A stretch of DNA of 64,000 nucleotides from Eledone cirrhosa (Eukaryota), in contig OZ024743.1 in the NCBI GenBank assembly GCA_964016885.1, forward strand, positions 302,622,001 to 302,686,000, in the 5' to 3' direction. The notes below the pieces were generated by a model. That model was not told where the DNA came from and searched no databases. It saw nothing but the letters and a program-made list of their open reading frames with translations. Below, piece after piece: positions 6,996 to 57,506 of this stretch. Made by a program: the position numbers and the translations under genes. How positions within the stretch are numbered: the stretch's first letter is position 1; every line of letters begins with the position of its first letter.

Positions 6996-7988
6996 ATATC
7001 ATAAACTTTATCAATTTAGAATCCTTTTCTCAAAGGCACATATATATATATACTTCTTTTTTTTTAAATATACCCGTCTTTCTACCTTATTTCAAAGTTA
7101 TTTATTATACATTATATAATAATTGTTACTCATTCTATATCACTCCTATTTATCACTTCCCTTTCTCCTTTTCCTTTTCTTTTCTTTTTCTTTTAATTTC
7201 TAACCCCTAATCTGTACCTTTTCTCACTGTGCCTCACATAGAAACAATTATTACACAATACAATATATTCTTACCTTATATCACCTTGAAAAAATCCTTC
7301 GTAAACATAAACACATTTTTTGGACGTTAGATTATTCATCCTCAATTCATTATTTTTTTCTCCCTTTCATCTAACTTATTCATGCTCATCTCACAATATA
7401 TTCATGCTCATCTCACATTACTTTTGTTTTTTTAATAATACATATCAACATTTTCTTTACATCGCACATATTATTAAACCCTTAAATATTATTCTTAATA
7501 CATATTAACATTTTCTTTCCATCGCACATATTATTAAACCCTTAAATATTATGCTTAATATATATTAACATTTTCTTTTCATCGCACATATTATTAAACC
7601 CATCAATATACAAACCTTAACTTTACATTATTTTTCTCTTCGTTAATTTTCAAATTCTTTTAATTTATACATTATCTTCCAATGGTTTTTCAACCTCTCT
7701 ATGTAAAACAATATATTTTTCTCAGTTATAAAAGCTATCTCTTTCTCTATCACCCATCTCTCCCCCCATCTCATCCTTCCTCATTATACTCCTCCCCCTC
7801 CACTTTTTTACTCTCATCTCCTCCTCTTTTTCTTCCTTTACAACCTCCCCCCCACAAACATTTTTTTTTCCCAATATCACACATCAATCTAAAAGTACTT
7901 TTCATATGTTGATTTAAAACTGCACTATTCGCAAGTGTTTTTAACCTTCATATCATGTCTTCCTATTTTATGTGATGAAAACACAAAT

Positions 7989-8072: not shown

Positions 8073-8120
<48 letters not shown>

Positions 8121-8354
8121 GAATAATCGAGAATCGGAATATCGGCCTACGAAATCACGATAAACAATATCCGACATGTGTGACAGAGGGCTCAATAATT
8201 TGGATAAATCAGAGCTATAACCATCGTTAAATTACCAACACATTGAGATCATGCCTAAAATCACCCGTGCAGGCGAAAAGAACGACCAGGAAGATTCGGG
8301 TCACTCAAATAAAATATCGATAAATTAATAAATTAAATGAATGTAAAAAACTCA

Positions 8355-8491
8355 CCCGGACCCGCTAGAAGGGTGTTAAATCTAGCTTCTTGGGTTTCTG
8401 CATTTCCTTAATCCAATCACTATCAGCCCACATAAAAAAATATATAAGACTTCTAGAGAAGGGGTGGACGCGGAACAGCTTTCTCAACGGG
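8355..8491 (-). ncRNA. Type I hammerhead, U3-A8 core, expanded stems II and III (copy 1)
   Basis: Minus strand: CCCG TTGAGAA [AGCTGTTCC...GGAAATGCA] GAAA CCC..CTAGA..TCTAG.GGG TC CGGG. Confidence 0.7.
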
Positions 8492-8982
8492 ATTTCGTCC
8501 GACAATAAAGAGGGGTGCTATAGCCAAGAACGCACATGGTACTCAGCAAGGGAGATAACCTCTATATTAGCGAAAGAATTCGGTGATGTGCAAATTATGT
8601 AAGAATACAAAATATCACATATCGAATCAGAGTGCTCAACAGACGTGTTAAAATAAACAGGAGCTATTCATCAGTCAATAAGCTCGACAAAAAAATAATC
8701 AATAAAATTAACTGGTCAATAGCTAAGGTCTAGAGCTAAATATAGTAGAATAATCGAGAATCGGAATATCGGCCCACGAAATCACGATAAACAATATCCG
8801 ACATGTGTGGCAGAGGGCTCAATAATTTGGATAAATCAGAGCTAAAACCATCGTTAAATTACCAACACATAGAGATCATGCCTAAAATCACCCGTGCAGC
8901 CGAAAAAGAACGACCAGGAAGATTCGGGTCACTCAAATAAAATATCGATAAATTAATAAATTAAATGAATGTAAAAAACTCA

Positions 8983-9119
8983 CCCGGACCCGCTAGAAGG
9001 GTGTTAAATCTAGCTTCTTGGGTTTCTGCATGTCCTTAATCCGATCACTATCAGCCCACATAAAAAAATATATAAGACTTCTAGAGAAGGGGTGGACGCG
9101 GAACAGCTTTCTCAACGGG
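8983..9119 (-). ncRNA. Type I hammerhead, U3-A8 core (copy 2)
   Basis: Same motif 628 bp downstream. Stem II base GC-TGTTC/GGACA-T-GC. Confidence 0.7.
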
Positions 9120-9844
9120 ATTCCGTCCGACAATAAAGAGAGGACCTATAGCCAAGAACGCACATGGTACTCAGCAAGGGAGATAACCTTTATATTAGCG
9201 AAAGAATTCGGTGATGTGCAAATTATGTAAGAATACAAAATATCACACATCGAATCAGAGTGCTCAACATACGTGTTAAAATAAACAGGAGCTATTCATC
9301 AGTCAATAAGATCGACAAAAAAATAATCAATAAAATTAACTGGTCAATAGCTAAGGTCTAGAGCTAAATATAGTAGAATAATCGAGAATCGGAATATCGT
9401 CCCACGAAATCACGATAAACAATATCCGACATGTGTGGCAGAGGGCTCAATAATTTGGATAAATATATATATATATAAATATCAAATAATTAAATTAAAT
9501 ATGTAAAATTTGGCTTTGTTTATTATAAATTATAGATATACAACTATATATATTTCGGTGACAGCCATCATTGTCTGTGATCTCTTCAGGCAGTCAGAAT
9601 TGGTGTGGAAAAGACAGGTGCACATGTTGTTGAAGTGTGTTTTACTCCGTCAATACATCGTTATGTCCAGCTCCTGGTTGTGTTGTTATTTCTATGAGGA
9701 ACTGGAATCATATAAGTTAGAACAAACGATTTTCGGCGTCATAGGACACGCTCGCATCCCATTGGTCTATTGTGAGAACATTCATCAGTCAAATATATAT
9801 ATATATATATATATATACAGAGAGAGAGAGAGAGAAGAGAAGAC

Positions 9845-25700: not shown

Positions 25701-26039
25701 TGAGGTATTATAATGATTTCTCAATTTCTTCTCTTTTTGTGGGGTTGGAGAATAGCTTCGTCGGTTGCATGTTTCTAACATGTCGATCACTGGATTACTG
25801 AATTTCCCAGTACAAAAGTAAAAAGGCATTGTCTGTAACTACTGTAGAACAGTAAAAATATGCCATCGTACTATTTACGAGTAGTACTATTTATTCTCAA
25901 TACTTGTATACGCATTACCGATATATATGTATGAAATATATGTATGCGTGTGTATATATACATACATATTGACGCGTTCCACTCCCGAACGGAAGTCGAG
26001 TGATTTGTGTGACGCACAAATCTAGAGGCACCTTTTCAT

Positions 26040-27515
26040 CACGTTCATAGACGCCTGCCGTAAAGCTGTAAATCGCTTCGACCTCCGCCACCATTCCAAA
26101 CGGCATAACATCACACGGGGAGAACACCTCGCTCTCCGCTCCCTCCGTAGCCGACATGACATCGTCATCAAACCGGCGGGCAAGGGAGCCGCCGTGGTGG
26201 TGTGGCGCGCTGACCTCTACACGGCCGAAGCATTCAGGAGGCTCCGTAACCCCCTCTTCTACGCGCCCTCTACCATCAGACCCCACACCCCTCTACCAAC
26301 AACAAGTTTCCTCCACAATCCAACACCTTGTCTCCTCATCCCTCCTCCCTCACATCGCTTCCCACCTCATCGTCTCCGACACCAATCACACCCTTCGCCT
26401 GATCGACTCCCTCTCTTTCCCACCCAGCCCACAGCCCCTCCTCTTCACCCTAGATATCAAGTCCCTCTATAAGCCTACGTGCGCTCCGGCACTACCTCGA
26501 CCTTCGCCACCATCCTTCGACTTGCCGAGCTGGTCCTCACCCTCAACTGCTTCTCCTTCTCAGGTGAGTTTTACCAACAGGTCACGGGGGTAGCCATGGG
26601 CACAAGAATGTGCCCAAACTATGCCAAACTTTTCATTGGACATGTTGAGGCCCAAATATTTGCCCAGTACACCGGCCCACGCCAAAACTGTACGGTCGTT
26701 ACATCGACGACTGAATCAGAGCCACGACCCTCACCCAAGAACAGCTCGACTCCTTTCTCTCCTGCTTCTGCTCCTTCCACCCCTCCTTCCCTTTCACCAC
26801 CTCTATCTCCACCACCCACGTCCACTTCTTAGGCATCTCCGTCGCCATCGACCCCTCACACCACTCCCTCGTCACTCCGCCTTCTTCAAACCCACCGACG
26901 CCCACTCCTACCTCACTACACACACAAAACACTCTATTCCATACTCCCAACACCTCCGGATCCGCCACCTCTGCAACCGAGATGCTGACTTTGAGTCCCA
27001 GGCCCTTTCCCTAGTCAGACATTTCATCCGGAGAGGTTACCCCCTCCCTCGTCCACACCGCCTTCACTCGCGCCCGTGCTGTCAACCGCACTACCGCCCA
27101 CACCCCCACGCCACCACACACAAACACACGGTCGCCCCTTCCGCATCACCTACCGCCCATCCACCCTACCCCTCCACCGTACCAACCTCCGCCTCTTCCT
27201 ACGCCTCCAGTCCGGCCCCTCCACCTCCCACATCTTCCCATCCCCAGACGCACCCTCAAACTCGAACGCAATAACCGCACCCTCCTCGTCCGCAGTTCCC
27301 TATCCCCCAACCCACGCTCCTCCCCCCCGGTTCCCTTCCCTGCTCCAAGCCTCGTTTCCACACCTGCCCCCACATCACCAACACCACCACCTTCCAGGGT
27401 CCCAACGGCCACTCTCTCTCTGTCCGACACGCCTTCAGCTGACCTCCTCCAACCTAATCTATGGAATTCCCTGCACGGAGGGCAGCGCAACCTCCGTCGG
27501 ACAGACTGGCAGTCG

Positions 27516-27517
<2 letters not shown>
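26040..27517 (+). mobile_element. GC-rich Penelope (Poseidon-like) element, internally deleted and frameshifted
   Basis: IVIKPA..G.AVVVW, LFTLDIKSLY, LNCFSF.GEFYQQVTGVAMGT, GRYIDD, FKPTD.HSYL, SIPYSQ.LR, TCPHI, NLIYGI.C...VGQTG.RL. Confidence 0.9.
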
Positions 27518-27594
<77 letters not shown>

Positions 27595-27685
27595 ACTAAC
27601 AAGCTAGCAGCTCCCACAAGCACTGATGGTGATTATCGCTAAATATTGATGTTGATTTGGTTATCAATATTAATATTATTGGGCA

Positions 27686-27808
27686 CTCACTGAATAATTA
27701 TAAGAGTCCACTTGAATAAGTATCTGTTGATCTTATACAAGCTTCAACATAACTTGGTATAATTTCACCCAACTTGTGGAAATCTTACAATGAAACGAGT
27801 CGTCTGGG
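27686..27808 (+). ncRNA. Type I hammerhead with about 95-nt stem II (copy 1; G8U substitution)
   Basis: CTCA CTGAATA ATTATAAGA...TCTTACAAT GAAA CGAGTCG TC TGGG. Confidence 0.7.
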
Positions 27809-28383
27809 AAGTGATATATTTGATATATCTCATATGAAATGATACAGCCAATTTTCCACACAATACAATTAGTTAGCACTCCGAACGTTTATTGAGGAAT
27901 ATACTCAGCTATTGCCTAATGTTTCTTGAGTGATTTGGAATTTGGCCGGAGTATCGCTATTAGCTTTCTCCGATTATGTATTTATATATTTACTCTTGGA
28001 GCAACAGATATGAACTTTCCCGATATAAGTTATGACTCTCTTTGTTTATATTTTTTAATATGAATATTGATTGTTTGTTCTTGTATCTCATTCTGTTATT
28101 TTGCCCGAGAAAATATCTATATGTGTCATTAAGCGATGCGCACATATGGTTATTTTTTTCATATCCAATCGAGTTCTAAGCACATGACTTGAATTCTTTT
28201 CCGAGTTCAACTATCTGCGCATGTGTTAGTTTGGCGGTAGTCTCCTTCCTCCTATTTTCGAGACAGTGTGAGATTTTCTTTCGAACTGCTGGAAAAACAA
28301 CCTAGCAGCTCCCTCAAGCAATGATGGTGATTATCGCTAAATATTGATGTTGATTTCGTTATCAATATTAATATTATTGGGCA

Positions 28384-28505
28384 CCCACTGAAGAATTATT
28401 AGAGCCCACTTGAATAAGTATTTGTTGATCTTATACAAGCTTATACATAACTTGGTATAATTTCACCTAACTTGTAGAAATCTTATAATGAAACGATCGT
28501 CTGGG
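28384..28505 (+). ncRNA. Type I hammerhead, canonical core, about 95-nt stem II (copy 2)
   Basis: CCCA CTGAAGA ATTATTAGA...TCTTATAAT GAAA CGATCG TC TGGG; palindromic stem III ACGATCGT. Confidence 0.85.
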
Positions 28506-28833
28506 AAGTGATATAGTTGATATATCTCATATGAATTGATACAGCCAATTTTCCACACAATATAATTAATTAGCAGCCTGAACGTTTAATTAGGAATATA
28601 CTCAGCTATGTCCTAATGTTTGTTGAGTGAGTTGGAATTTGGCCGGAGTATCGCTAGTAGGTTTCACCGATTATGTATTTATATATAAATATATATATAC
28701 ATATATATAGGAAAATGTGTATGTGTGGGTGAATGTGTGTATACGTGTGTGTGTGTGTGTCCCACTCTCAAGACTGTGATATTAATAAACTTTTATTTGT
28801 ACTGCCTCCCTGTTTTCGTTCCCGTTCCAGTTT

Positions 28834-31395: not shown

Positions 31396-31467
<72 letters not shown>

Positions 31468-31519
31468 TTCTATATAATACTTAATAAAAACAATCAAACA
31501 TTTTAACACTAAGATTTAC

Positions 31520-33420
31520 CTTTGGTTCATGTTGGTTGGTTTTCGCTTCTGTATCCTTTATATCGTTTAATTTAATGTATTCAGTCCTCAATGTTACCAT
31601 TGACTGAACAACGGTCAAAAATACAGATACAATATATACACAAACACATATATATATTCTAACAAAGTGCTTTTGTTGCACATCTGCAACATCGTCAGTG
31701 GTGCTATTATGTTTCCTCCCGTTGTATTGTATGTCTACGCCATCTTTATTTAGTCTTTTTATTTATTTATTTATTTGTTTATTTTTTGTCTTCTCTGCGC
31801 ATGCGTTTGCGTGGGTGTAAGGTGTTTCATTTAATGTGTGTTCGTGTTTGGGTGACTGTGTATTGGTTATTTTATTCTATCTTAGTTTACTAGTGTGTGT
31901 TTATATGTGTTTGTTGTTATTGTGCTTGTGTATGTATTTATTTATTGATTTATGTATACTTCTCTTAGGTCAGTGCTTTTTGTTTGGGTCTTGTTGTTAT
32001 TCTATTGTTTCTGTTTAACCTTGGCCTTCTAAGTTCTATTTTACTGGCTTCTCTGATTTGCCTATCTGCTGGGTCATTTCTATGTTTAGATATTATTCTA
32101 ATTTCTATGTTGTCTATGGTAACGTCGTGTTGTTGTCTGACATGTTCGTATAGTACTGAACCGTTTTTCCGTCCTTTTAGTTCCCCCCCAGTGTTGGTCT
32201 ATCCTTTCACATATGCTACGAGCTGTCTCGCCTATGTATGTTGTTGTCATGTTTCTGCAAGTACCATATGTACATCTTTTGCTATATACTATGTTTCTAG
32301 ATTTACAGTTTATCCGAGGCTTTACTTTACATATGATACATTTCCTATTAGTATAGTGGGTTTTCTTAAAAGGGTAGGTTTTGCTGATCAGGGATTTTAT
32401 GGTGGTTCTTGGCTTTTCTACCACCTCAATCTTTAAGTGGGTCTTTCTCATCGCCTTTCTACACGGGTTAGCTAATTTCCCCATCCAGGGGTAGCGTCCA
32501 CAAACATGATACTCTGGTATCTTGGGTTGTCGTAACATGAGGTGGCTTTCCCTATCTTATGTCTAGTCCTATCTAAGCTATTCCATGATTTGCTCCCGTA
32601 TAATGGTCAAATTCCTTTCATGTCCAGTTCTATGAGGAGCTTATACTTCTCCGTGGCTCCTTCGTATACTCTGATTCGGTCTCTTTGGATGTAGCCAGAG
32701 AACTGCATGCGGTTCTTGAAGTGTTGGATGTGTCTTTCCATTTCTGTTTGGTCGCACATGCGGGACACGTTTTTCATCACTCGTACCATGTCTGCGACCA
32801 GAATATTAAATTTAGCACTACTGGACAATGTTGAGTTTTTGAGTATCAGGTATTTGGAGGCCATGGGTTTAGCCTAGTGTGAGTGGAGAATTTGGGCTCT
32901 CTCGTCTATAATGTTAATCCAGAGTTCCGTGTCTAATACAGGTATTCTATTGTTAGGGTGTTTGGAAGGGTAGTCGATAGTTACAGTTATACTCTTGTGT
33001 ATGGAATTATATATCTGCTGGATGCTTTCCATTGTGCTACGTTCTAAATCAAACTTGTTAGTGCTCTCTTGTGGGGATGTCCTTATTACTATATTTATGT
33101 CGTCTATGTAACGAGAGTACATGATGAGGTTATGGAGCTCTCATCATGGAGATCTTTGAGTCTCTTTTCCGACCATAGCATAAAAAGGCTGGCAACGTCT
33201 CCAGCTATGCTGACGCCGATGGCTGCTCCCTCATTTTGGGTGTAGATCTTCTCGTTGAACTTGAATGTGTGGCCCTTTAAGGTAGTTTTGATACTAGCTG
33301 CTATTGCATGTGCGACCATTGTTTTTGGGGCTCCGTATAGATTTGGTCCACCCAAACCACCTTCCCAGGGGAGTCTTTTTTGTAATTGAGGTTATAGTGC
33401 TGTCTACCTCTTATGGGTCT
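31520..33420 (-). mobile_element. Neptune-like PLE (family C), left arm: RT fragment, GIY-YIG, 3' UTR
   Basis: FKFNEKIYTQNEGAAIGVSIAG, YSRYIDD, IPVLDTEL, MQFSGY, YIGETARS. Degenerate HHR at 31655-31707. Confidence 0.9.
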
Positions 33421-33496
33421 ACTGGGGCAGAAACCTCTAAGGTCATGGCTGTCTAGGTAGTCTGTGTCGTAGGTAAGTCTAAGTAGACGGCCTCAG

Positions 33497-34855
33497 CAAT
33501 GTCCAGCAGGGCTAAGTTTAATATTCTGATCGCAGACCTGGTCCGAGTGATGAATAATGTGTCCCGTATGTGCGACCCAAAAGAAAAAGAAAGACACATC
33601 CAACACTTCATCAACCGTATGCAGTTCTCTGGCTACAACCAAAAAGATAGAATCAGAGTATACATAGGAACCACAGAGAAGTATAAGACCCTCATAGAAC
33701 TGGACATGAAAGAATTTGACCATTATACAGGAGCAAATCATGGAATAGCTTAGATAGGGCTAGACATAAGATAGGGAAGGCCACCTCATGGTACGACAAC
33801 CAGAGATACCAGAGTGTCATGTTTGTGGACGCTACCCCTCGAGGGAAATTAGCTAACCAGTGTAAAAAGGCCCTGAGAAAGACCCACTTAAAGATAAAGG
33901 TGGTAGAAAAGCCCTGAACCACCATAAAATCCTTGATCAGCAAAACCTACCCTTTTAAGAAAACCCACTGTACTAACAGGAAATGCATCATATGTAAAGT
34001 AAACCCCCGGTACACTGTAAAACTAGAAACGTAGTCTATAGCATAAGATGCACAGAGGGTACTTGCAGAAACATGACAACAACATACATAGGCGAGACAG
34101 CTCGTAGCATAGGTGAAATGATAGACCAACGCATTTGGTGAACTAAAAGGACGAAAAAAACGGTTCAGTACTATACGAACATGCCAGACAAGACCACGGT
34201 AACATAGACAACGTAGAAATTAGAATAATATCCAAACATAGAAATGTCCCAGCAGATAGGCAAATCAGATAGGCCAGCGAATTAGAACTTAGAAGGCCAA
34301 GGCTAAACAGGAAAAATGAATGGAATATCAACAACACCCAAACAAACAACACTGTCCTAAGAGAAGTATAAATAAATAAATATATAAATACATACACAAG
34401 CACAATAACAACAAACACATATAAACACACACTAGTACACTAAGATAGAATACAATAACCAATACACAGTCACCCAAATATGAACACACATCAAACAAAA
34501 CACTATACACACACGCAAACGCATGCGCGGAGAAAACAAACAAGTAAACAAATAAATAAATAAATAAATAAATAAACAGACTAAATAAAGATGGCGTATG
34601 AATACAATGCAACGGGAGGAAATATAATAGCACCACTGACGATGTTGCAGATGGGCAACGAAAGCACTTTGTTTGACTATATAAATGTGTTTGTGTCTAT
34701 ATTGTAGCTGTATTTCTGACCGTTGTTCAGTCAATGGTAACATTGTGGACCGAATAGATTAAATTAACCGATATAAAGGACACAGAAGCGAACACCAACC
34801 AAACAGTGAGTGTGTTCTGTTATTAATTCTGGCAAATATGAACCTCCCCAAGTAT

Positions 34856-34860
<5 letters not shown>
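33497..34860 (+). mobile_element. Neptune-like PLE (family C), right inverted arm: C-terminal part, GIY-YIG, 3' UTR
   Basis: Reverse-complement homolog of about 31520-32850 (MSSRAKFNILIADLVRVM..MQFSGY; YIGETARS). Confidence 0.9.
34627..34680 (+). ncRNA. Minimal hammerhead, canonical core (family C)
   Basis: ATAG-CAC-CA CTGACGA T GTTGC-AGATGG-GCAAC GAAA GCAC TT TG-TTTGA-CTAT. Confidence 0.75.
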
Positions 34861-34939
<79 letters not shown>

Positions 34940-38256: not shown

Positions 38257-38289
38257 ATAAATATTTACATATACATAAAGTCACAGATA

Positions 38290-39282
38290 TATATGTGGCA
38301 ACCGTTCACGATGTGGCTCGTTGAAGAATTAATAAATTAAATAATCAGAGCAATATATTATAAATTATGTCCTTAGGCACATTAGATAAAATATATATAG
38401 TATTTCCTCTCCCAATTAGCATAATTAAACATGTAAAAAAATCAATTAGACCAGGCTATAATAATAAAGGCTCCTATGAAGAAACATTTCATAAATAACC
38501 GAAAGCAGCCTCTTCGCGGTTGACCACAATAAAGTACTTACCCAACATTTCAACAGCATGTAGACACTGACCAAATATACCGTCAATTATACACAATTAG
38601 GAATAAATTTATAGTTAGAAGAAATGCGTACATACCGAAAATATATCCCTACCATGGTTTCGTTCGTATTTTGCGATATCCTATTAAGGATAAATCTCGA
38701 GTATCGAACTCATCAGGAGACAAACTCAATACGACAGTTAATTCTCCAAAGCGATCCCGCCAGAAATAGATTCAAAAATTGGCTAAGAATAGTGACGTGG
38801 CAGTGGTTAAGTTAGAAATAATGTGATTAGATACTTACGGCGTGTAGACTGGTTAATTATGCTAATTGGGTGAGGAAATAGTATATATATATTATCTAAT
38901 GATTCTAAGGACATGATATATTATATATATATATATATATACATTTTTTCTTCTTCTAACTTTGATTGTGTACCTAATTATGTATGGTTAACTATATGTC
39001 TAGTCAATTTCTAGAGGCTTTCAGAAATACTGGGTACATTTCCTGTAGCTCTGAATCGCGGATAAACAGCTATATAATGTATCTATTGTTTCTTCATTAG
39101 AATATTTTAAACTTATAGCCTCGTTTAAATAATTTTTGTGTGGTTGATTTATGGTGATTGGGGGAATAAATAGTGTATATATTTGATCTAATGATTCTAT
39201 GGACTTACTTTTTATATATTGCTTTGATTATTATGTATTTACTTAATTCGTCTTTGAACCACACCGTGAATGGTTGCCAAAA
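38290..39282. repeat. Diverged, nested inverted-repeat element
   Basis: GGCAACCGTTCACG..TGTGG (38297) vs CCACACCGTGAATGGTTGCC (about 39260-39279). 38365-38430 is also inverted at 38855-38915. Confidence 0.6.
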
Positions 39283-39346
39283 ACATATATATATATATAT
39301 ATATGTATATGGCTTTGACTAGTTTAAATGTATATACCCTTTAAAT

Positions 39347-54795: not shown

Positions 54796-54829
<34 letters not shown>

Positions 54830-54875
54830 GGAGAAGAAGTTTATGAAACGGAAATGCGGGTATAAAGAATTTATT

Positions 54876-54992
54876 AGGTAACAATTGTTTCTTTTGCGTA
54901 TGGGTTACCTATACCTCGCTATTTGAATAATATAAAAATATTATCATAAACCGAAGGTACACTGCAAGCAAACACACCATGTCGTCAGACAT
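54876..54992 (-). ncRNA. Hammerhead with about 90-nt stem II at PLE 3' end (family E)
   Basis: ATGT CTGACGA CATGGTGTG...CATACGCAAAA GAAA CAATTG TT ACCT. Confidence 0.6.
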
Positions 54993-55329
54993 TTGTATTG
55001 GAATGATATGAAAATATTTTATACACTAGATAAAAGAGAAAGAAGGAGGTAGGAAGAGAAAGGGAAGAGGGAAGTGAGTAAGGGGAAGGAGTCCTAGGAT
55101 TTAAGACTGTCAGACTCATAGAGATTGTAAGGAGAGAATGTTTTGGCAGCAGTTAGCTTAATGGGGCGTGTTAGGGTTGGCGGGGGAAGTAAATTCTTCT
55201 AGTGTTGTTGTTTGGACAAAATTTAGTTAAAGGGGTCAAAGTGGTACAGAGTTACAGACAAGTTATTGGGGCTATTATAGTAGCAGGTTATTTCTAAAGG
55301 CGTCCAGAAAACAGTGTTTAGTACTATTA

Positions 55330-56232
55330 TTATAGAAAGCCATATCTTGTGTATAAACATATAAAACAGAAATTTGCAAACGGTGGTGTAAAAAGGTAAC
55401 ATTGTATGCATTTAAAAAAAGAAAAAGTCGTTTTCAAACGATGGTTACAGTATAGTGAACGTTCAAGTTTGCTGTTCAAAAGTTTGTTTACCGACATTAA
55501 AATGCAGTATATCTCCAAATTGCATAATTTACAGAATAGATTATTTTCCTTATATGCAGGCGCAGCGTCAATACTTTGCCAATCAAGGGAGAATGCTTGA
55601 TTGTTCCTCCGGAGCTGCCAGGCTTTATCGGCGAGGGTTGTTACGGAGCGCATTTTCTCGTGCCTGATCGAAGATCGATGTTGGTAAAGGCGAGCTTTGA
55701 AAGATGTTGCGGTACATCCGACGTAATACCATTTGTTGGTTCCGGAATGTATTGTACATCGGTAGACAATATTGCGTGCTAGGTACTGGTTATTCAGTGG
55801 GCTCGTACCTGGTTTGGTGCAGTTACAATAATTTTTATGTTTTGCAGTAGTATCCTGGATAGTTTGGTGGGGTTGTAGTTGCGTGTTAGTGCGTTGTATG
55901 TTGCTATGCTGGTGCGTTGAGTCGTTAGGGATGTACTTATTTAGTATTGCTGAGTTGAGTTTTTTAATTAGTTGTTCTATGTTAGGTGAAGTGGAGTATG
56001 AGAGTCTAATGGTGCGCGAGTTAAAGATGTTATAGTATTTATGTGAAGTTGTAAAGTGTTTATTGATTAGTGTATAGAATTGTGAGATAATCTTAGTCCT
56101 AATAGAAATATTGTACACGGGGTTATACCATATGTACTCTCTACGTCTGACTCTATTTGCTGGTTTGCACCTATTAGTATGCCTATTGATGTGTGGTGCA
56201 ATACTAGTTCGACTTAGATGTGTTTTATTCAT
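55330..56232 (-). CDS. PLE linker + GIY-YIG endonuclease
   Basis: IWYNPVY, CNC, IVYRC, YYVGCTATSFKARLYQH, CKLCNLE, LLNSKLE, CNHR. Confidence 0.9.
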   Translation of the reverse strand: MNKTHLSRTSIAPHINRHTNRCKPANRVRRREYIWYNPVYNISIRTKIISQFYTLINKHFTTSHKYYNIFNSRTIRLSYSTSPNIEQLIKKLNSAILNKYIPNDSTHQHSNIQRTNTQLQPHQTIQDTTAKHKNYCNCTKPGTSPLNNQYLARNIVYRCTIHSGTNKWYYVGCTATSFKARLYQHRSSIRHEKMRSVTTLADKAWQLRRNNQAFSLDWQSIDAAPAYKENNLFCKLCNLEIYCILMSVNKLLNSKLERSLYCNHRLKTTFSFFKCIQCYLFTPPFANFCFICLYTRYGFL

Positions 56233-56316
56233 AGTACTTATGTGGTTATCGTCTAGATATTCTATTTTTTCGCAGTAACCAGCTTTACTAAGTGCATCAT
56301 TATAATATTCAGAATG

Positions 56317-57221
56317 CTAGTTGAAGGTCTGCAAATTAGACGACAGTCGGGAGATCCTTATGGATATATTTTTAGGGATAGATTTAATAATGGAATGGGG
56401 ATGGTTCGATTTTACATTAACGTACTTGAGATTTTCATTAAGTTTGTTAAATGGCTCTATATTACCGTTATTAAGGTTGAAGGTGACATCCAAGAAGTTG
56501 ACCACCTTAAGATTGTGTTCGAAGGTAATATTAAGCCCAAGTTCTAAGAAAAGCTTCCTAATATTTTTACGTCGCCTTTCTAGGTTTAGTTTGTCCATAT
56601 TCTTGACTAATAGAAGTGTGTCGTCGCGGTATATTCCGCCGTGGAGGTCCGTAAATTCGCTCTGGAGTCTGTGGGCTAAATAGATCCCAACCAGATCCGT
56701 GATCTCCGCCGAATCATTAGAACCCATCGTAATGTCGAATTCCGAGGGTCTATCTCTGCGGACCCAATAACTATTTTCAAAATGCACTACTGTGCGTCTA
56801 GCTTCAAGAATAATATTAATTTCCTCGTTTGTGAGGTCCGAGTTAGTCTTAGCGAATGAGAGGGCCTTATGCAGGGTTTCGGGTGAAATAGAGGAATAGT
56901 ATTCATCTATATCGAATTGAATAAAAGAAGATTTGTTTTTGTCCCTAATGTTATTGAACCAGCTTATTGCCTGTTGAGTATTACCCCATAATTTAATATC
57001 TACCTTAGCCTTAACTTGGGGGATAATACGATCTAATATGTACTTATTGATTCTACCTATATCGGATTTTGAAGGACATATTAATCTAATTTTAGGGTTA
57101 GTATCGAAGTTATCCTTATGGTCCTTCAGATTAAAAGTCGGTGTAGCTGGAGATAGGGGTACCGTTCTGTCGTCAATTTTCAGTTTCTTAACAATATCAC
57201 ATGCTGCGTTATTAATGTTGG
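56317..57221 (-). CDS. PLE reverse transcriptase (5'-truncated, YRDD intact)
   Basis: LKDHKDNF..NPKIRLICPSKSDIG, FIQFDIDEYYSSI, FDITMGSNDSAE, GGIYRDD, NFLDVTFNL, SNHP. Confidence 0.92.
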
Positions 57222-57235
57222 TCATTCCAATACAA

Positions 57236-57352
57236 AGGTCTGACGACATGGTGTGTTTGCTTTCAGTGTACCTTCGGTTTATGATAATAATTTTATATTA
57301 TTCAAATAGCGAGGTATAGGTAACCCATACACTATAGAAACAATTGTTAACT
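57236..57352 (+). ncRNA. Hammerhead with about 90-nt stem II, inverted pLTR copy (family E)
   Basis: AGGT CTGACGA C ATGGTGTG...TGTACCTT...GAGGTATA...TACACTAT A GAAA CAATTG TT AACT. Consensus stem I AGGT/ACCT from the two copies. Confidence 0.7.
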
Positions 57353-57506
57353 AATAAATTCTTTATACCCGCATTTCCGTTTCATAAACTTCTTCTCTAT
57401 ATTTTCTCCGGATTTTAAAACACACTTTATTATACGTTGAGCAATCTCCGACGTCGGTTGACTCCATCTTATGCAACTACTTAGTAACATTGGAATACAA
57501 ATTTAC

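Follow-up and report, generated by a model that had tools for sequence, protein, structure and literature searches.

Which kind of mobile element leaves two direct repeats of about 400 bp, each with a hammerhead ribozyme motif, on either side of a stretch of non-coding DNA? The question is raised by a locus of Eledone cirrhosa within a stretch of 64,000 nucleotides of contig OZ024743.1, which was analysed as a whole and is called the window here. A first-pass annotation, made from the letters of the window alone, read the locus as an LTR-like retrozyme similar to those of plants, with a spacer between its repeats. The evidence points to another answer. We consider the locus to be a decayed 1.57-unit insertion of a non-coding family, that is, a non-autonomous Penelope-like element (PLE) of the type known as animal non-LTR retrozymes, copied by a borrowed PLE enzyme, and give this reading a probability of about 0.8.

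Layout of the locus

The locus consists of 1.57 head-to-tail copies of a 697-bp unit inside (TA)n. Its features, in window coordinates, are as follows.

26000..27515, + strand: neighbour outside the element, a decayed Penelope-like RT/GIY-YIG remnant (motifs by eye) that ends at the TA run
27517..27591, no strand: (TA)n run at the 5' junction, the insertion target; of 84 sampled copies whose 3' end is intact, 52 have a TA run before them
27592..27989, + strand: upstream unit copy, 5'-truncated, comprising the last 398 nt of the unit (the pseudo-LTR); its 5' start is variable at other loci
27686..27808, + strand: upstream hammerhead, core inactivated by G8U, predicted cut after 27804
27805..28501, + strand: predicted cut-to-cut monomer RNA, 697 nt, 34% GC
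27990..28686, + strand: full 697-bp unit, its register set by the fixed 3' end
27990..28289, + strand: the 'spacer', which is the 5' part of the unit and recurs in the upstream copy of longer insertions (L004, L007, L015, L246)
28384..28505, + strand: type I hammerhead with a 4-bp stem I, an intact core, a 95-nt stem II region and stem III, predicted cut after 28501
28502..28686, + strand: predicted cut to fixed 3' end, 185 nt; about a quarter of genomic copies are little beyond this segment
28676..28709, + strand: fixed TA-like 3' end grading into a TA-rich flank, the putative start of reverse transcription

Both direct repeats exist, although they start about 6 nt earlier than had been noted, at 27592 and 28290. 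The two copies (27592-27989 and 28290-28686) are 91.7% identical and differ by one 1-nt indel. The second copy carries CCCA at 28384-28387, CTGAAGA at 28388-28394, GAAA at 28490 and TGGG at 28502-28505, so that the core and the stem II of about 95 nt described in the first-pass annotation are located at 28384-28505. Its further claims of a G8U change in the first copy (which reads CTGAATA), of a 697-nt cut-to-cut RNA at 27805-28501 and of the absence of an ORF were also borne out, the longest ATG-started frame at the locus being 51 aa.

The window copy is decayed. Besides G8U in the upstream hammerhead, one stem II pair is broken in the downstream one, which also has a 1-nt deletion in loop III. 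Because the upstream core is broken, this copy is probably dead as a source; cleavage of its upstream site by the downstream core would be conceivable in a dimer fold. Two sequencing runs of unrecorded kind matched to the locus reflect the repeat family only and have no bearing on expression.

Two hammerhead-like motifs, at 28388 (+) and at 38716 (-), came out of a strict scan that covered both strands of the window. The latter is likewise of type I but separate from the element; its stem II region measures 48 nt, and it lies within an inverted-repeat structure at 38268-39311. The window also holds a 628-bp unit (8110-9464) in 2.2 copies that are 97.5% identical, again in (TA)n. It has no blastn similarity to the 697-bp family, in line with the independence proposed earlier, or to the second non-coding family described below (family B). 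Two further PLE-like elements, with inverted end copies, occupy 31397-34928 and 54826-57402. The first belongs to a family that is very abundant, with 29,883 first-look candidates, and whose open frames exceed 1150 codons; it was also seen at L230, and a motif scan of it found no hammerhead.

A dispersed family of partial tandems

Two subfamilies of the unit are marked by 26-mers that have 245 and 326 exact matches in the 3.0-Gb genome, while the reversed controls have none. DNA searches of the genome returned 3747, 1696 and 2315 first-look candidates, of which 40 were scored each time. Insertions are dispersed across many contigs. Together with the lack of an ORF, this upholds the earlier claim of a non-autonomous, non-coding, hammerhead-bearing mobile family. 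Divergence from the column majority is 1.3-5.6% among thirty copies, of which the window copy, at 5.3%, is one of the most decayed. Copies with both hammerheads intact, which the first-pass annotation proposed to look for, exist: at least two complete hammerhead units occur at L002 and at L246.

Architecture was examined in 92 insertions obtained from the first 100 of 245 matches listed, against a reference copy of 693 nt. A common 3' end at unit position 690-693 is present in 84 of the 92, and a TA run lies 3' of 78 of these 84. By contrast with this fixed end, 5' ends are spread all along the unit, and length ranges from 0.2 to 2.44 units between loci. Beyond unit position 1, copies continue either into the 3' end of another unit or into a TA run. 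L246 is the longest insertion seen (2.44 units), and no longer array was found among the loci examined. The 3' tail typical of PLEs is absent from the sampled copies, 5' inversions are rare, and the TA flanks would mask any target-site duplication.

These observations decide what the repeats are. Since their length and their 5' ends vary and the spacer recurs in longer copies, they are pseudo-LTRs of a partial tandem and not LTRs, an arrangement described for PLEs (PMC8557442). The supposed spacer is the first 300 nt of the unit, counted from its 5' end, and not a domain enclosed by LTRs. Any resemblance to plant LTR retrozymes, which are mobilised by Ty3/gypsy elements, is confined to the window locus, where repeats of 300-400 bp and about 700 nt from cut to cut agree in size and layout with those elements (PMC4918200). 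A repeat length between 0.2 and 2.44 units with variable 5' ends refutes a plant-type origin. The hammerhead is of type I, with stem I open, rather than type III, the ends grade into TA runs, and neither a TG..CA pair, a tRNA-Met primer site nor a purine tract was found. We regard a plant-type element as having next to no chance of being the right explanation.

The repeats could also have been produced by tandem duplication or satellite turnover at the DNA level. The two full units of L246 are 99.4% identical, and local amplification of retrozyme arrays is discussed in a preprint (10.64898/2026.07.22.740005). This explanation is nevertheless highly improbable, as insertions on many contigs have one common 3' end and junction, and their 5' ends track a feature of the RNA.

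Predicted structure of the hammerhead

The stem II closing consensus inferred from the window, ATTATAAGA/TCTTATAAT, proved to be that of stem II in the family. The predicted fold of less decayed copies has a 9-bp helix that then branches into two hairpins. Relative to the minimum-energy structure, this hammerhead fold costs 1.5 kcal/mol in four of five less decayed copies, 4.5 in the fifth and 2.9 in the window copy, whose 171-nt hammerhead region folds no better than shuffles (z 0.42).

Covariation was absent within one subfamily (29 sequences). Across the two subfamilies, which are about 84% alike, there are three two-sided pair changes. Stem II has A-U/G-C and the second hairpin has U-A/C-G; the change in the first hairpin, A-U/U-G, is weaker, with 6 cells unpaired. 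The cells with two-sided changes beat 500 of 500 shuffles, whereas the count of changed pairs is matched or exceeded in 356 of 500. Covariation here amounts to three events, scored on a structure that was itself obtained from these sequences, and it supports the prediction that the hammerhead folds with a 9-bp, branching stem II.

A fully canonical hammerhead is found in 64 of 92 distinct contexts, a proportion that favours intact copies because the search pattern needs intact stem II flanks. Stem III takes the form ACGA-G-TCGT-C in 28 contexts and a longer form with a GACGTC loop in 34. The perfect palindrome CGATCG, which the first-pass annotation had linked to cleavage as a dimer, results from a 1-nt deletion private to the window copy (1 of 92); what holds at family level is a near-palindrome that would still be prone to dimerise. 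Hammerheads of Hydra-clade PLEs mostly have a stem III of 4 bp and a 1-nt loop, and loops 2 of only 3-10 nt (PMC8557442 supplement). Because the short form of stem III matches these 4 bp and 1-nt loop, cutting as a dimer is plausible.

Folded as a circle, the monomer is strongly structured relative to 25 dinucleotide shuffles (z -5.8 for the window, -7.5 for L246); as only the circular fold was computed, these scores speak for structure and not for circularity. An intron within stem II (GT..AG) was considered and rejected, the sole genome match to a shortened stem II being an internal deletion elsewhere than at those sites. At L018, at L030 and in a long-loop variant, small deletions and a 4-nt length variant adjoin the predicted cut, as imprecise joining might leave.

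The search for a coding parent and a probable donor of the enzyme

No coding parent was found: the unit has no DNA or protein similarity to the PLEs tested. Likewise, no sequence is common to the unit and either the family of the window's 1153-aa PLE or two coding families with a long stem II. The first-pass annotation had asked whether an autonomous PLE shares the repeats, and in the few families compared the resemblance is limited to geometry and a short TA-like end. A search for a parent by means of the same stem I led to another non-coding family, family B.

Family B has a 507-bp unit (L299:1446-1952; loci L171-L190 and L261-L345), with the stem I of the 697-bp family and a shorter stem II. 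Its 3' end lies about 185 nt after the cut, with an optional 86-nt tail, and 5' inversions are frequent; a 29-mer from it has 669 exact matches. Many other type I hammerhead families occur in the flanking DNA of the loci examined, and the genome is unusually rich in them.

Coding PLEs with similar hammerheads do exist in this genome. One young family (L346, L350-L379), whose copies are 98-100% identical, carries the endonuclease motifs CxCX5C, CxxC and CxH together with a hammerhead whose stem II is 92 nt; its 3' ends lie 55 or about 160 nt after the cut and are TA-like. The motifs stand upstream on the same strand at 12 of the 23 loci listed for the 92-nt-stem-II hammerhead. They are those of the (TA)n-targeting Hydra clade (PMC8557442, section 11). 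Near 7667 (+) of L347, a hammerhead with an 82-nt stem II follows a GIY-YIG endonuclease remnant, and another at L115 (-) has a 78-nt stem II region. Pfam gave no match for six PLE-like ORF pieces, nor for the window remnant, and the assignment of the pieces to PLEs consequently follows from their motifs.

These elements bear on the idea that the 697-bp copies are truncated 3' ends of a coding PLE (3' UTR plus pseudo-LTR). The hammerhead-near-end geometry of the coding PLEs is alike, and a PLE remnant lies directly upstream of the window copy. A probe for that remnant (26000-27515), however, matches only the window locus and one unrelated place among the family loci, so it is not common to the family. 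None of the PLE pieces near other family loci is joined in register to the unit, PLE protein probes miss it, and copies that run past unit position 1 continue into the unit itself or a TA run. Truncation of a coding PLE is therefore very unlikely and largely refuted in the sampled loci, and the position taken in the first-pass annotation, that the unit is not a 3' UTR, holds for the loci tested, where nothing coding precedes the unit in register.

As for the copying enzyme itself, it is somewhat more likely than not that a Hydra-clade PLE is the donor of the reverse transcriptase. This is what we infer rather than observe, because the long-stem-II PLEs share geometry and not sequence with the unit and Pfam is blank for the ORF pieces.

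Rfam returned nothing at gathering score in the 64-kb window, and no hammerhead model at E values up to 10 in 27500-28800. Given that it misses the 95-nt stem II, and that hammerheads with 82-92-nt stems II stand behind coding PLEs, long-stem-II motifs may be undercounted and may even be common while escaping both Rfam and the usual descriptors.

5' ends at the predicted cut

Counts are given as 5' ends among the copies at risk. Sample 1 comprises 85 insertions with an intact 3' end, and 23 of 82 5' ends fall in the 20 nt after the predicted cut, where 3.5 are expected from the background rate, compared with 2 of 59 in the 20 nt before it. Among copies on their second pass through the unit, 5 of 15 stop in the same 20 nt after the cut. 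Sample 2 is disjoint and was drawn from the second subfamily: the first 72 of 326 matches listed gave 69 insertions, 66 of them with an intact 3' end, after one locus obtained earlier was left out and pairs were merged. It repeats the pattern, with 15 of 64 after and 0 of 49 before the cut (20 nt each), and 2 of 8 on the second pass. Pooled, the counts are 38 of 146 after versus 2 of 108 before (p = 1.6e-8), and 74% of copies read through.

Some ends are closer still. Within 1 nt of the predicted cut there are three first-pass ends (0.27 expected) and one second-pass end in sample 1, and two (0.23 expected) in sample 2. An exact start at the cut with foreign DNA before it was found twice among the first 100 of 320 matches listed, using a pattern that omitted one of the four letters at the first position.

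Most ends in the peak, however, lie on an ATATAT run 9-14 nt past the predicted cut (unit 516-527), and alignment ends are blurred by the TA flanks. TA microhomology thus contributes to the peak. Whether it could account for all of it was judged from seven other TA-like 20-nt windows, picked by hand, which hold 19 of 231 ends versus 28 of 97 at the predicted cut (p = 4e-6); microhomology alone is therefore insufficient. Stalling at the strong stem II was rejected as a source of the peak, since few ends lie there.

Family B, which has no TA run at this position, gives weak support at best for a footprint of the cut. In a 20-nt window chosen around the cut it has 9 of 76 ends, four of them 4-5 nt upstream, and in the next 20-nt window in the 3' direction 6 of 83 (96 insertions, many with inversions). 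Ends 4-5 nt upstream of the predicted cut were seen at L125, L140, L386 and L404 and, in family B, at L276, L310, L320 and L339. They might reflect a stall just past a cut that had been joined, or additional cleavage at the first of two GUC triplets.

The main competitor is a hammerhead that is idle in copying: uncut tandem transcripts would be the template, and annealing of ATATAT to the TA target would make the peak. The position of most peak ends on TA-like sequence and the small peak of family B accord with this. An anole PLE takes uncut RNA as its main template in vitro, with no reads ending at the cut (PMC11167929), and eight of nine Xenopus dimers remained uncleaved in vitro (preprint 10.64898/2026.07.22.740005). 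Yet 5-14% of copies end in other TA-like windows, one of which covers the longer TATATAT where units join, as opposed to 28-33% at the cut. The six ends within 1 nt of the cut have at most 1 nt of microhomology, and the boundary is sharp, with only the 2 of 108 ends just upstream. Moreover, insertions made from uncut tandems could lose length but never gain it; the loci examined nevertheless include a 5'-truncated 2.44-mer and no array longer than that. An idle hammerhead is thus unlikely, though far from negligible, and the 5'-end pattern likely records self-cutting in the animal, followed by copying by a borrowed Penelope-type enzyme.

A proposed route of copying

Several components of this route are seen directly: a dispersed family without an ORF, partial tandems, and a TA-like 3' end 185 nt past the predicted cut. 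Tandem transcripts would be cut at GUC in vivo, as the 5' ends suggest, and the near-palindromic stem III would permit cutting as a dimer. A PLE RT-endonuclease, most likely of the Hydra clade, would nick (TA)n and start copying at the fixed internal TA-like site. An internal start 3' of the hammerhead has been observed in vitro for the anole PLE (PMC11167929). About a quarter of the cDNAs would then end within 20 nt of the cut end, be trimmed to the nearest TA match, and be joined via TA microhomology.

The remaining three quarters or so would cross the cut, either because the 697-nt RNA is circular or because the enzyme jumps from the 5' to the 3' end, and this is the step of which we are least sure. 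Crossing would yield copies longer than one unit and regenerate the tandem for the next round. Either a circle or a jump of the enzyme would explain insertions that exceed their likely sources in length. Long precursors that are only partly cut would do the same, but the loci examined include no array above 2.44 units; uncut tandem transcripts would produce read-through as well. Divergence within loci, compared with that between loci, does not separate a circle from a tandem precursor. A circular-template route for PLEs was proposed in 2014, at that time without in vivo evidence (PMC4209133). We put forward only tentatively, and with some doubt, that the insertions record both cutting in the animal by a branched-stem-II hammerhead and an enzyme rounding the rejoined 697-nt circle more than twice from one internal start.

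The class of element is already known; the novelty lies in the branching of stem II and in the putative trace that cleavage has left in the genome. Word searches of openly accessible literature returned no branched stem II of this size and no 5'-end peak at a PLE hammerhead cut, although supplements may hold such motifs. A small non-coding family with ends at the cut as well as read-through copies provides a countable genomic readout, and its unit of about 700 nt offers a substrate for a direct test.

Comparison with known systems

Plant LTR retrozymes (Cervera et al. 2016, PMC4918200) resemble the family in size at the window locus only. They have type III hammerheads, fixed LTRs, a primer site and a purine tract, none of which was found in the 697-bp family, and 4-bp target duplications, which the TA flanks of the family would hide.

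The Poseidon PLE of Anolis (Frangieh et al. 2024, PMC11167929) is alike in its fixed internal start of reverse transcription 3' of the cut, its AT-rich targets and its pseudo-LTR tandems. In Poseidon, however, reverse transcription can begin at two sites, which produces a tail, and in vitro it proceeds mainly on uncut RNA, whereas the 697-bp family has one dominant end and 5' ends at the predicted cut.

Hydra-clade PLEs (Craig et al. 2021, PMC8557442) share (TA)n targets and the placement of a hammerhead about 100-200 nt from the 3' end. The Neptune and Naiad clades also target (TA)n. Unlike Hydra-clade PLEs, the 697-bp family has no ORF and a longer loop 2, and it lacks sequence similarity to the Hydra-type families examined.

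Animal non-LTR retrozymes, for which a PLE origin has been suggested (Cervera and de la Pena 2020, PMC7229834; Li et al. 2026 preprint), are the class to which the family probably belongs. Both have a non-coding unit, one type I hammerhead, low GC, full or partial tandems and a strongly folding monomer (PMC7229834), and 697 bp falls inside the 51-972 bp range of animal retrozymes (preprint 10.64898/2026.07.22.740005). The present family is known from DNA sequence, and its unit is bigger than the 220-390 nt animal retrozyme units that have been tested. It mostly has fewer than two units per locus, as opposed to long arrays, and its 95-nt branched stem II sets it apart. No parent PLE was matched to the family by sequence. 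The family has those features of animal non-LTR retrozymes that can be tested in sequence, and it appears to function as one of them.
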